From NCBI RefSeq assembly GCF_055900595.2, contig NZ_CM148325.1: a stretch of DNA of 64,000 bases. The stretch is one strand, 5' to 3'. This document shows positions 57,504 to 64,000 of this stretch, piece by piece. Under the pieces are notes generated by a model. It saw only the letters and a program-made list of their open reading frames with translations. It ran no database searches and was not told where the DNA came from. Position 1 is the stretch's first letter; each line of letters starts with the position of its first letter. Both the position numbers and the translations under genes were made by a program.

Positions 57504-57694
57504 TATTATTTAAATATATGGTGTAATCATTTGTATTCATAATATAAATGATTGCATCCTATTTTATTTGTTGAAACGCAAATGTAAGTGAGCGAAATCA
57601 CTGTGTTATAAATTTAAGATTATATTTAGTTTTCCTGGCGTGCCTTTCTGAATAATCTGGAATAGAATATTAGAGCTAATTTTAAGCATTATTA

Positions 57695-61043: not shown

Positions 61044-64000
61044 ATGTCGGTATGTCTGAAACCAGGGAAAATCATTATGCTTCTGGGCATGTTGGCAGCT
61101 TTTATGCTGTCTGACTTTGCACGGGCAGGGGCGGAATGGCAGACATATCCTGATTCTACAGGCGAGTTTAACGGAACCGTTCCTTTTGCCGACAGCGCCA
61201 GCGTACCCGTCTATCAGGGCAGTGTTCAGCTTAATCCTGCTGAATCTCATGATGTCGGGTTTTCTGCTAAACCGAATGAATTTAGCGTTGACGATGACGC
61301 TGCTAACCTGATTGTCGCTAATCCTCAGGACAATGAAGGCGACCAGTTTTCCACACCACCTGCGCTGCGCTGGGAAAATCAAACACCCCCTACCGTCAGC
61401 CTGGTGTGGGCCGATGCCGCCACGCCCGATGTGCCCCTTAACCCACAACCTATTGCTAACCGTAGCTTTTGCGCTCAGGGGCTGGCCGGACGCTCGCTGG
61501 TGGCCTGGCCGCAGATTGATGCGCAGCAAACCCTCCCACTGCTCTACCTGTTGACCTCGACCGGCTATCCCTATGCGGGGACGGTGGCGCTGGTGGACCA
61601 GAAAGTGACCCTGAACATCGCGCCCGCGCAGGGCGATTTAATCTCGGTGAGCGCCAGCGGTTATAACGAAACGATCGCGGCGGCAAAAACCACCGTTGGC
61701 GACACCATCACGCTCACCGTCACCACTAAAGATTGTCAGGGCAACGTCGCGGGTAATATTCCGTTTATTATCAAACGTAAAGATGCTGAAAATCGCCAGG
61801 GGGCAGTGAATAATAGTGCGCCAGTGGTACTGGATAGCACCGAGTTAACGACGACGGCTACCGAATACCATGGCACCTCTGATGCCAACGGCACGGCCAC
61901 CATCACGGTGAGCCAACCGAACGGCCCTGGCGTCAAAACGCCACTGGTGGTCAGCATTTCCGGCATTGCGCAAACCAGCGAAACCGCGGTGATTTTTACG
62001 GTGCTCACCAGCCCGGACGCGGCGCAGGCTACGATGTGGGGCCATATGGCGGAAACGGTAGAAGCGCACGGTTACACCTTCAGTCGACCAAAGCTGGCGG
62101 CAGAAGTCAGCAATGAAAGCGCCACGGTCGTCGATCACAACGAAACCTGGTCCACCTTCACCTGGAGCGGCGCAGATAACCACTGCACCGTGCTGCCCGG
62201 CATGCGCCACTTCGGCGCGCTGGCGACCGTTATCCCCACATCGGTGCAGACAGTCCTTGGCTGGCCGATGCAGGGGGATTATTACTGGTCATCGCTGGCG
62301 GGCACCACCGGGCAGCACCATGCGGCGGATGTCTCTAACCGTGGTGAAACGCAAAAGCCGGATAGCACCCCGTTTCTTGTAAGCTGCGTGGATAAACCCG
62401 CGCCTGATGTCGAGCCGAAAATCGTCCTTACGCCCGAAAACTATGATGATACGGCACAGGCGATGAAATCGCAGGTGGGCGAAGACGCCACGATGCGTCT
62501 GACGATCACCGACAATAAAAATAACGATCAACCACTGGCGTATTACTACTTCTCGCTGCATCTGGATGACGGCGTTAACCGCAAAAATCAAACCGATTCC
62601 GCCTGGGAAGCCCATCCGGTGCAGATTACTGGTGGTTCGAATTTGCAACAGGTTGATGCTCACACCTATGAAGGCATGACCGATGTCAACGGTCAGGCTT
62701 CGCTAACCCTGAGTCAGCCCGACGGCGCAGGCGTGAAAACCCATATCACGGCGAAAATGCGCAGCAATTTTACGGCTACAGATGCCAAAGACGTGATTTT
62801 TACTGTGATCACCAGCCCGGACAGCGACAAGGCGCGGATGTGGGGCCATATGCGCGGCATTGTTGTATCTGGCAGTCTGTTCAAACGCCCAGTGCTGGCG
62901 GATGAAACTGAGCATGAACTGGGATCGGTGCGGGAAAATAACGAAGACTGGGCGCTGTTCGATCAAGACACCAGTATGCAGGCTGAATGCGGCGTCGGCC
63001 ATACGCCAAGTCAGAGTGGGCTGGAAAGCCTTTTTTCAGCCCATCCCGGTAACGCGATTGGCACTGAGTATGGCTGGCCCACCGCACAACAGAACTACCT
63101 AAGCGCGGTGGAGCAAGCCACGCATTCATCGGTGAATTTGGCGAACGGAAACGTCGACAGCTACCCCGGCTTTAAGCGAAATTACCTCTCCTGTTCGGGC
63201 AATGAGATGGTCGCGAAGGTTGAAGTGAGCACCGATCACGATGTCACCCCTGGCACCAAAGCGCAGGCCAAAGTGGGAGACACCGTCGTGATGACCGTGC
63301 GTACGGTTAACGCGCTCAATAATACCCCCGTTCCCTTTACTGCCTTCACCATCACTAAAGGCATGGGGTATAACCGAGCGGGGCTGGTGAGCGGGTTTGA
63401 TGACCCGAGCAGCGGCGCAATCTCGATGAATGGCACGCAATACGGCACATCTCAGCCGTCGATGGTCTACACAGGTACGACAGATGCACAAGGCGTGGCA
63501 ACGGTCGAAATAGAGCAACCCCAGGGGGTGGGGTTAAGAACCGTGCTGAGCATTACGCCGGTCAATTCCCATCTACCAAATGCCATTAATTACAATGTTA
63601 TTTTTACCACCCCAACCAGCCCGGATGTTAGTGGGGCGCAGATGTGGGGCCATATGGATGAAACGATTACCGTTGATTCATTAACCTTTACCCGGCCTAA
63701 GCTGGCAGCAGAAATCACCAGTCCGGATGGCACATTAACGGAAAAAAACGAAGTCTGGGCGCGCGTTAGCCAGGCCAGTACGGCCATTACCAGTAAAGGC
63801 GGTTGCGGAACCAATATGCTGCCGCGCCGCTCCCAGCTCAGTGCGCTCTATGACGCTAATAACGGTAATGCGGTGCAAGCCACACACGGCTGGCCGACGC
63901 AGCGTCAGCCCTACTGGAGCAGTTCCCCCGCGGATTTAACGCCGCACAATTACACCATTGCCCTGGATAACGGCGCACAGGCCATCGGCGGCGATACGCC
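61044..64000 (+). CDS. ratA: giant repetitive surface protein, RatA/RatB-like, N-terminal 985 aa (3' end lies outside the window)
   Basis: ATG at 61044, 7 nt after GGAG; signal peptide ...SDFARAGA; frame has no stop through 64000 (so it is absent from the stop-bounded ORF track); contains three in-frame tandem repeats, each with TSPD...MWGHM. Confidence 0.75.
61985..64000 (+). repeat. tandem coding repeats of about 804 bp (268 aa) within the ratA-like gene
   Basis: atgtggggccatatg recurs in frame at 62034, 62838 and 63642, each preceded by (V/I)IFT..TSPD and followed by a (T)F.RPKLAAE module. Confidence 0.8.

Follow-up and report, generated by a model that had tools for sequence, protein, structure and literature searches.

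The stretch of DNA that follows yfgJ in this chromosome raises three related questions: which system its genes belong to, whether they arrived as an inserted island, and how their products would reach the outside of the cell. The window analysed here is a stretch of 64,000 nucleotides, at the end of which the original prediction, made from the letters alone, had placed three genes on one strand 3' of yfgJ. All three were found there on the + strand, in the list of open reading frames and their translations (Table 1). The region is almost certainly the known chromosomal sinH-sinI-ratA adhesin locus (iatB, or the 'ila' locus), located between yfgJ and xseA, and with the same high confidence it is regarded as corresponding, in E. 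coli, to the sinH-sinI-ratA segment of the CS54 island of Salmonella (Kingsley et al. 2003, as cited in PMC4943183). The system has already been described in extraintestinal E. coli and its names are already in RefSeq, where those given to the EC42405 locus (98.7% identical) are the same as assigned here. Earlier publications have treated IatB/SinH, the 'ila' locus, the vaccine antigen, the LeuO-regulated gene and a proposed ZirT-like translocator (PMC6714894, PMC9937491, PMC12525524, PMC4943183), a literature that agrees with the description of the locus as only partly characterised in E. coli. SinH is enriched in E. coli lineages of bloodstream and urinary infections and is in development as a vaccine antigen; this medical importance is already in the literature, and the window adds no new system to it.

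Table 1. Features of the sinH-sinI-ratA region, in coordinates of the window.
Feature	Position	Strand	Description and basis
yfgJ	57288..57503	+	71-aa four-CxxC zinc-ribbon protein, left neighbour; RefSeq 'zinc ribbon domain-containing protein'
AT-rich spacer	57504..57712	+	Composition; presumed promoter/silencing region
sinH (iatB)	57713..59887	+	724 aa from the conserved start; NCBIfam NF033423, RefSeq annotation
sinH mRNA hairpin	57742..57787	+	21-bp stem and 4-nt loop, in the signal-peptide coding region
SinH beta-barrel translocation domain (IAT_beta)	57899..58720	+	Pfam PF11924; 4E1T, 4E1S
SinH C-terminal passenger	58721..59884	+	Three Ig-like domains by published modelling (PMC9937491)
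SinH domain common to SinI	59576-59875	+	Last ~100 residues of SinH
sinI	59943..60935	+	330-aa Sec-signal-bearing, barrel-less partner; NCBIfam NF040711
Two tandem hairpins, sinI-ratA gap	60943..61010	+	12-bp stem 60943-60970; 17-bp stem 60974-61010
ratA-like, 5' 2957 nt (985 codons)	61044..64000	+	Translation, NCBIfam NF011844, Pfam; continues past the window end

The longest ORF of sinH (57695-59887) has 730 codons, and the conserved start lies inside it, at ATG 57713: the NCBIfam alignment begins at residue 7 of the 730-aa ORF, and the RefSeq start of the EC42405 sinH (98.7% identical) is the base equivalent to 57713. Against the NCBIfam equivalog NF033423, SinH scores 1473.7 bits (cut-off 999), aligned over positions 1-730 of the 730 in the profile. 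The inverse-autotransporter beta-barrel expected in the 730-aa protein is present, since Pfam IAT_beta (PF11924) covers residues 69-342 of that ORF (E 3.5e-105, 277 of 279 model positions) and the solved barrels in the PDB of invasin (4E1T, E 2.5e-72) and intimin (4E1S, E 1e-64) match residues 107-349. Judged by its sequence, SinH is an inverse autotransporter (type Ve) of the intimin/invasin type, with the barrel N-terminal to a passenger of ~385 residues. Reading its N-terminus (MLRWKRCIMLTFISGAAFA/AP) by eye, and not with a predictor, shows the n-h-c arrangement typical of signal peptides. No Pfam family matched the passenger, and an AlphaFold2 model of full-length SinH (16-sequence alignment, mean pLDDT 45) was too poor for fold searching; the Ig-like nature of the passenger rests on published AlphaFold2 modelling, which gave three such domains (PMC9937491).

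The second gene is of the secreted type and lies where it was predicted, its product being 330 aa long from the ATG, or 332 aa from an upstream GTG, instead of 331. SinI scores 377.3 bits against NCBIfam NF040711 (cut-off 165) and has no match to IAT_beta in Pfam. The C-terminal domain said to be common to SinH and SinI was recovered by alignment (SinH 628-727 vs SinI 215-327, 31% identity, E 1e-9), and each protein matches the NCBIfam model of the other across this stretch; by these alignments the C-terminal domain of SinI is a paralogue of the SinH tip domain. An AlphaFold2 model of SinI shows two beta-rich domains (mean pLDDT 63.6), for which Foldseek found nothing in the PDB at E <= 0.001, the best result being a weak tandem Ig/FnIII-like resemblance, and the SinI sequence had no match among solved structures.

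The third gene was expected to encode a RatA-like repetitive protein of more than 985 aa running past the window end. It does stay open for all 985 codons to 64000, and its EC42405 orthologue, 95-100% identical in nucleotides per 500-nt bin over the shared part, is 2694 aa long. The fragment scores 2183 bits against NCBIfam NF011844 over positions 1-980 of 2683, to be read against a whole-protein cut-off of 3870 with only 985 codons in the window, and the full-length EC42405 protein reaches 5410 bits against the same cut-off. A signal peptide and a unique N-terminal region of ~215 aa are followed by BIg21 and InvE_AD modules, three Pfam matches to each in the fragment, with a repeat period of 804 nt; over the whole length of RatA these repeats continue up to the last residue, with no barrel and no anchor. 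The three identities (SinH, SinI and RatA-like) pass the curated NCBI cut-offs, the last one as scored on the full-length EC42405 orthologue, and no evidence was seen against them.

Routes to the cell surface

The mechanism proposed for SinH is, as a whole, carried over from what holds for the invasin/intimin family. Guided by a Sec signal peptide, the protein would enter the periplasm, BAM would insert its N-terminal 12-stranded barrel into the outer membrane, and the C-terminal passenger of Ig-like domains would pass outward to the cell surface, its terminal domain then binding a host or surface ligand. SinI, encoded directly downstream of sinH, would be a barrel-less partner bearing a signal peptide, and RatA a secreted protein of ~2700 aa for which SinH, according to a published proposal, is the candidate route across the outer membrane. 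Because RatA has neither barrel nor anchor, it would need such an outside route, and its lack of an export or anchoring module of its own sharpens the question of SinH as a translocator. Surface display, adhesion and the dependence of SinI and RatA export on SinH are what we infer for this locus. Secretion dependency had been called open, a statement to be qualified, as the translocator hypothesis for SinI and the Rat proteins is already published (PMC4943183).

Taken further, the same hypothesis would make SinH mainly a ZirT-like translocase, that is, a barrel with a periplasmic or reversibly plugged passenger acting as a two-partner-secretion-like pore that exports SinI and RatA, themselves the adhesins. 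We consider this unlikely, though by no means negligible. RatA carries a signal peptide but, from end to end, neither barrel nor anchor, which speaks for such a pore; against it, RatA has no detectable domain in common with SinH or SinI. The gene order is that of zirTSU, with barrel-less proteins after an inverse autotransporter and, in the case of SinI, a passenger domain in common (PMC4943183, PMC6714894), and the order of the trio is constant across five genera, yet two terminator-like hairpins separate ratA from sinHI. Moreover, IatB/SinH (another allele) was surface-exposed by immunofluorescence and promoted biofilm when expressed in K-12, alone and with no downstream protein (PMC6714894), and domain 3 of SinH is a protective antigen, antibodies to which protect mice (PMC9937491), implying a passenger outside the cell. 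By BLASTP, SinI has no significant similarity to the RatA fragment or to full-length RatA, so that a common recognition element for one translocator is not evident; a C- or N-terminal tag common to SinH, SinI and RatA was dropped as a candidate on the same result.

The start of sinI lies 55 nt past the sinH stop with no terminator between them, and the two genes are reported to be co-transcribed (PMC12525524). The tandem hairpins between sinI and ratA (fold -48.8 kcal/mol, z -7.9) are each followed by a U-rich stretch and look like terminators or processing sites.

Distribution and history of the locus

The reading of the locus as an inserted island started from K-12, in which xseA was said to follow yfgJ directly. 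This is correct (the two convergent genes share 4 nt in K-12, and the site is empty), and the locus is variable rather than universal in E. coli, with full-length sinH in 1740 of 5426 complete genomes. The order der-yfgJ-sinH-sinI-ratA-xseA-guaB, however, recurs in five genera (Escherichia spp., Pseudocitrobacter, Superficieibacter, Citrobacter and Salmonella), and across all the genera compared yfgJ adjoins sinH, including those in which der lies 3-5 kb off or is absent. No integrase, other mobility gene or tRNA gene was found in the annotated full locus of EC42405, and no direct repeats at the locus borders; together with the same neighbours in five genera, this does not describe a mobile genomic island. 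Insertion is therefore not the best reading; the shared gene order in five enterobacterial genera suggests that the locus has long resided at this site and that K-12-like lineages lost or replaced it.

Recent insertion of an island gained by horizontal transfer, as opposed to later loss of an ancestral locus, is in our judgement improbable. That K-12 and roughly two thirds of complete E. coli genomes lack the locus could suggest it, but published surveys report the locus from phylogroups B2, D, F and G while commensals of phylogroups A and B1 lack it (PMC9937491), a pattern that fits loss. The AT-rich leader could suggest it too. The sequence had been described as sharply AT-rich from 57504, which is true of the 209-bp spacer between yfgJ and the conserved sinH start (GC 0.278) and of the first 600 nt of sinH (0.438), but not of sinI (0.52) or of ratA (0.56), the latter exceeding the core (0.524). 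Divergence among the alleles of the locus far exceeds that of the flanking core, and there is clear evidence of this segment moving between genera by recombination; against insertion, its position and neighbours are identical in all five genera, and integrase, tRNA gene and direct repeats are all missing at its borders.

The alleles of the locus are deeply diverged. The sinH allele of the window is rare, being at least 99% identical in 8 and 95-99% identical in 16 of the 5426 genomes; alleles of the common kinds show 82-94% identity in sinH, and 66-80% in sinI and ratA for the type found in the urine isolate FDAARGOS_448. The flank is at least 99% identical in 13 of the 5426, which marks a rare lineage, and the 5' half of yfgJ is strongly diverged from K-12 yfgJ. 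A recent exchange with Pseudocitrobacter vendiensis spans at least 12 kb and has its breakpoint inside sinH. Deeply diverged alleles and intergeneric transfer with such a breakpoint bear on the stability of SinH as a vaccine target.

That the locus of this lineage is a silent remnant in decay, without present function, is very improbable: although Z0117EC0005, the nearest relative as judged by the flank (100% identity across 24.5 kb upstream), carries an internal deletion fusing the 5' part of sinH to the 3' part of ratA, ratA is frameshifted in AR_0089, sinH is split into several ORFs in one Salmonella genome and no protein was detected in the laboratory (PMC6714894), the sinH and sinI of the window are intact, ratA is open for 985 of 985 visible codons, the 2694-aa ratA gene of EC42405 is intact, the coding sequences are kept across genera, and sinH is reported as upregulated in human urinary tract infection and needed for mouse bladder fitness, a sinH mutant being defective there, in the portion of PMC9937491 that cites Shea et al. 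2022.

Expression and a hairpin in the sinH coding region

The spacer contains an AT-rich terminator-like hairpin after yfgJ (57520-57558), and alignment shows conserved blocks in it, together with an AGGGA ribosome-binding motif before the sinH start that is kept across genera; a simple promoter scan found no sigma-70 consensus match on its + strand. This AT-rich promoter region may undergo H-NS-type silencing. Regulation had been considered open, which is in part no longer so, given that LeuO raises the iatB/sinH transcript ~15-fold; under laboratory conditions no native IatB protein could be detected, even when LeuO was overexpressed (PMC6714894).

Where sinH encodes its signal peptide, the mRNA hairpin is formed by an inverted repeat, 95% complementary (fold z -6.7), and in the allele of the window an outer stem extends the helix to about 57735-57793. 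Alignments show that it is conserved across Escherichia with compensatory changes among alleles and species: 85.7% of the alignment cells are paired, vs 34-46% when the alignment is slid, and 9 of the 21 pairs are changed on both sides. Synonymous-codon randomisation gave z values of -3.4 to -3.8, and was not significant in Salmonella, Superficieibacter and some other genera; the hairpin is thus not universal. Several identities were tried and set aside. A dispersed repeat is excluded by its sole occurrence in sinH, both within the window and among E. coli genomes, 1686 of which carry it; a -1 frameshift signal, on inspection, by the lack of a slippery heptamer upstream; an intrinsic terminator by the lack of a U-tract past the stem. 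The excess of G-U wobbles over A-C mismatches on the sense strand (36 vs 13) speaks against a DNA palindrome or operator. No Rfam family corresponds to the hairpin (two chance-level matches at E <= 1), and a full-text literature search returned no report of a sinH hairpin element. To our knowledge, no such RNA element has been described for any inverse autotransporter, and the sinH hairpin is apparently unreported.

A perfect two-turn helix 30 nt after the start codon would be a plausible RNase III substrate or barrier to early elongation. On this basis it is tentatively proposed, at rather less than an even chance, that the hairpin acts as a post-transcriptional gate on SinH production. Such a gate, if true, could explain the 15-fold rise in iatB/sinH transcript with no detectable protein (PMC6714894), and the hairpin is a testable lead on why SinH is hard to detect in culture.

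Comparison with known systems

From a structural perspective, SinH has solved relatives in intimin of EPEC/EHEC and invasin of Yersinia, with which it has in common a homologous barrel (4E1S and 4E1T, respectively) and the placement of that barrel N-terminal to the passenger. Unlike them, SinH has no LysM domain, Big_1 repeats or C-type lectin cap by Pfam, and its score against the intimin NCBIfam model is 247 bits (cut-off 1400).

In Salmonella, the CS54 island consists of shdA-ratB-ratA-sinI-sinH, flanked by xseA and yfgJ. The predicted likeness to the sivH-sivI-ratA arrangement holds, as an S. enterica locus reads der-yfgJ-sinH-sinI followed by rat genes, at the same site and in the same order, with SinH ~74% identical in the aligned part and SinI ~43%. 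The E. coli locus differs from the full CS54 gene set: in EC42405, xseA comes straight after one rat gene, and both shdA and a second rat are missing. Scored against NCBIfam, the protein of the window and of EC42405 fits 'RatA-like' better than the Salmonella RatA or RatB models, and the long 5' hairpin is not present in Salmonella sinH.

ZirT-ZirS-ZirU of Salmonella likewise comprises an inverse autotransporter followed by barrel-less signal-peptide proteins, one of them having a passenger domain in common with it (PMC4943183, PMC6714894), the likeness here being one of gene arrangement and domain alone. Unlike the ZirT picture, SinH is surface-exposed and active alone (PMC6714894). The 'ila' locus of ExPEC strains such as CFT073, ST131 JJ1887 and SMS-3-5 has the same domain content as the locus of the window and the same three genes, in the same order and at the same yfgJ-xseA site. 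Alleles from urinary and other isolates align to that of the window over its full length, and what distinguishes the latter from the common types is its rare sinH allele in the flank of a rare lineage.

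Organization and products of the sinH locus

Directly downstream of yfgJ the window carries three genes on the same strand, as the original prediction had stated: sinH, sinI and a ratA-like gene, whose frame stays open through all 985 codons and thus runs off the window as expected. The second product, announced as 331 aa, is present but counts 330 aa from its ATG. Translation of sinH is likely to begin at ATG 57713, giving a protein of 724 aa, because the NCBIfam alignment begins at residue 7, the RefSeq start of the near-identical gene in E. coli EC42405 agrees, and an AGGGA motif upstream of this ATG is conserved across genera.

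Features of the region from yfgJ to the end of the window
Feature	Position	Size or structure	Strand	Source
yfgJ	57288-57503		+	ORF list, frame translation
Spacer yfgJ-sinH		209 bp	+ side	ORF list, frame translation
Hairpin past yfgJ	57520-57558	18 bp, AT-rich, T-rich tail		
sinH, longest ORF	57695-59887	730 aa	+	ORF list, frame translation
Hairpin in sinH	57742-57787 (extended 57735-57793)	21-bp stem, 4-nt loop	+	repeat scan
sinI	59943-60935	330 aa, ATG start	+	ORF list, frame translation
Tandem hairpins sinI-ratA	60943-60970 and 60974-61010	12 bp and 17 bp		
ratA-like	opens 61044	985 codons without stop up to window end	+	frame translation

The sharp AT-richness claimed from position 57504 onwards holds for the spacer (GC 0.278) and the first 600 nt of sinH (0.438, against 0.524 in the core; composition count), but not for sinI (0.52) or the ratA-like gene (0.56), which lie at or above the core value; it is therefore limited to the leader and the sinH 5' end. 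The hairpin found immediately past the yfgJ stop codon is possibly the yfgJ terminator. Between sinI and ratA lie two very stable tandem hairpins (fold z -7.9), each with a U-rich stretch on its 3' side; these probably act as a terminator or as a site of processing that sets ratA apart from sinHI, which suggests that ratA is transcribed at least partly separately.

The three products have been assigned with NCBIfam models. The SinH equivalog model (cut-off 999) gives 1473.7 bits for the first protein and the SinI family model (cut-off 165) 377.3 bits for the second, while the third covers positions 1-980 of the 2683 of the RatA-like model, on which the full-length EC42405 orthologue reaches 5410 bits (cut-off 3870). 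Moreover, SinH residues 69-342 form an inverse-autotransporter beta-domain (Pfam, E 3.5e-105) resembling the solved barrels of invasin (4E1T, E 2.5e-72) and intimin (4E1S, E 1e-64), so that the 730-aa protein does contain the barrel of the intimin/invasin type attributed to it. The shared C-terminal domain is likewise borne out by a tail-to-tail alignment of SinH 628-727 with SinI 215-327 (31% identity, E 1e-9). The RatA-like fragment contains three BIg21 plus InvE_AD modules (Pfam) with a repeat period of 804 nt; in EC42405 the C-terminal 1000 residues consist of such modules only, with neither barrel nor anchor. SinI alleles fall into two deep classes, one window-like (69-97% amino acid identity) and a second at about 40-47%. 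In the SinI signal peptide the motif L-A-G-Y-C, which differs from the canonical lipobox, is unchanged in 17 of 17 sequences from six genera (alignment A5), an invariance unusual in a signal-peptide core.

Proposed roles of the three proteins

In the best-supported account, SinH would be a type Ve adhesin assembled by BAM and displaying an Ig-like passenger, SinI a co-expressed two-domain protein, periplasmic or secreted, with a copy of the SinH tip domain, and RatA a giant secreted repeat adhesin without an outer-membrane route of its own. The main rival is the published model in which SinH would act as a ZirT-like translocase: Heinz et al. (2016, PMC4943183), who treat SinH, SinI and Rat-like proteins, proposed that such inverse autotransporters translocate co-encoded proteins, and the analogy of this locus with zirTSU was drawn by Goh et al. 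(2019, PMC6714894), who named the gene iatB. This hypothesis is compatible with the gene arrangement; against it, SinH is exposed and active alone, IatB being surface-exposed and producing biofilm in K-12 without need of the downstream gene (Goh et al., 2019, PMC6714894).

A hairpin in the 5' coding region of sinH

The signal-peptide coding region of sinH contains a hairpin, conserved across Escherichia, and the RNA fold predicted there greatly exceeds shuffled sequences in stability (z -6.7). In seven E. coli alleles the sole variable stem position appears as A-U, G-U, U-A or U-G, through synonymous third-position changes, and E. albertii carries two double compensatory changes (ACGCTT/AAGCGT vs ACATTT/AAATGT) that keep the pairs while substituting amino acids (F to L, N to S). 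In a gapless alignment of 15 sequences, 85.7% of cells pair, compared with 34-46% when the partner is slid; 9 of the 21 stem pairs change on both sides, and the covariation score is reached by none of 500 shuffles. G-U wobbles outnumber A-C mismatches (36 vs 13), a bias that favours pairing in the sense-strand RNA over DNA or an antisense RNA. Randomization of synonymous codons gave z -3.4 to -3.8 (0 of 300) in four of five E. coli alleles and z -2.5 (5 of 300) in the fifth (MSB2_1A type). Furthermore, codons 8-27 show half as much synonymous variation as the gene on average, a level found in only 24 of 712 windows. These patterns are evidence that the pairing is under selection. Part of the pairing is due to the amino acid sequence, since the Ser-Gly/Pro-Glu and Ala-Ala codons are self-complementary, and the randomized mean is therefore already -31 kcal/mol.

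Citrobacter, Pseudocitrobacter and Superficieibacter have shorter hairpins (8-12 bp) with other arm sequences at this position, and no significant signal emerged in Salmonella and some other genera. Searches of the window and of E. coli genomes found the hairpin in sinH only; it matched no Rfam family, and a literature search found no mention of it. Lying 30 nt inside the coding sequence as a perfect helix of two turns, it may plausibly be an RNase III target or an elongation barrier, a reading that would fit the gap between iatB transcript, raised about 15-fold by LeuO, and protein, which was undetectable (Goh et al., 2019, PMC6714894). A strong block is countered by the good translation of plasmid-expressed iatB with its own 5' end.

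Distribution, age and relation to known systems

In K-12, xseA does lie next to yfgJ, the two genes being convergent with a 4-nt overlap. Of 5426 complete E. coli genomes, EC42405 matches best (98.7% identical over 7 kb); its RefSeq annotation reads sinH, 'SinI family autotransporter-associated protein' and 'adhesion domain-containing protein' (2694 aa), then xseA, guaB and guaA. A sensitive search found full-length sinH in 1740 of the 5426, so the trio is not universal in E. coli; the other genomes match solely via the barrels of fdeC, yeeJ and similar paralogues. According to Xing et al. (2023, PMC9937491), the gene is present in 98% of phylogroup B2, 100% of F and G and 67% of D and is absent from A and B1 commensals. 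The core flank 33000-57500 is 100% identical to one dog isolate, at least 99% identical in only 13 of the 5426 genomes and about 95% identical to typical E. coli, which places the window in a rare and divergent lineage of this species. E. coli-type sinH (92-99% amino acid identity) also occurs in a MAG labelled Collinsella sp. (L014) and a 426-bp contig of Rhizobium wenxiniae (L023), most likely by contamination or mis-binning of public records.

The original prediction was accurate in its finding and is supported in its interpretation except for the word 'inserted'. A genome-collection scan for SinH, look-ups of distant N-terminal homologues and tblastn recovered the order der-yfgJ-sinH-sinI-ratA-xseA-guaB in E. 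coli, E. whittamii, E. albertii, other Escherichia, three Pseudocitrobacter, two Superficieibacter, a Citrobacter and Salmonella enterica; this common order argues against insertion, as do the lack of mobility genes in the annotated EC42405 locus and of border repeats in the repeat scan. These data are most simply explained by an old locus that K-12-like lineages have lost or had replaced. When locus-positive and K-12-type genomes are compared (window 57000-57503 against K-12, L003 4226-4510), divergence far exceeds that of the surrounding core at the der 3' end (~91%), in the yfgJ 5' half and at the xseA 3' end. yfgJ (Zn_ribbon_6) adjoins sinH even where der is 3-5 kb off or not in the neighbourhood (L016, L019, L030), a hint that it belongs with the locus. 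Decay is in progress in several genomes: a deletion in Z0117EC0005 (L002 37214-40566), which matches the window at 100% over 24.5 kb of flank, joins the 5' part of sinH to the 3' part of ratA, ratA is frameshifted in AR_0089 (L034 4041-6997), and sinH is broken into several ORFs in one Salmonella genome (L029 6001-7831). That the window itself holds a decaying relic is unlikely, every visible frame being intact.

Pseudocitrobacter vendiensis CPO20170097T (L015) was compared with the window and with L001 16200-28900. Sliding-window identity is 75-84% over bamB, der, yfgJ and the sinH 5' part. From ~58200 (codon ~162, inside the barrel) to the window end at 64000 and beyond, the remainder of sinH, all of sinI and most of ratA are mostly 96-100% identical, apart from one 500-nt ratA bin at 90% and an internal ratA segment (L001 22457-23957) at just 74-78%; xseA is still at ~93%. 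This profile points to a recent exchange between genera by recombination, which spans at least 12 kb and has its breakpoint inside the SinH barrel. Escherichia is the more likely donor, because the nearest E. coli allele family, the AR_0089 type, is 80-94% identical per 500-nt bin and other Pseudocitrobacter 64-87%. Close to this breakpoint, codons 166-180 (~58208-58252) form a second stretch of unusually low synonymous variation among Escherichia alleles (0.12 vs a gene mean of 0.37). The exchange and the sinH hairpin are modest side observations, apparently new.

The locus itself is not new in view of the literature on IatB, translocators, the SinH vaccine and 'ila', and the system, like its interpretation in the original prediction, is established and annotated. 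Xing et al. (2023, PMC9937491) described diverged sinH alleles, modelled three Ig-like domains with AlphaFold2 and reported that SinH domain 3 is protective; for upregulation of sinH during urinary infection in humans and for a fitness defect in the bladder they cite Shea et al. (2022). A 2025 review uses the name 'ila' for the locus and describes sinH and sinI as co-transcribed (PMC12525524). Finally, the likeness to sinH-sinI-rat of Salmonella extends to the flanking genes, the Salmonella enterica locus having the same order as that of E. coli.
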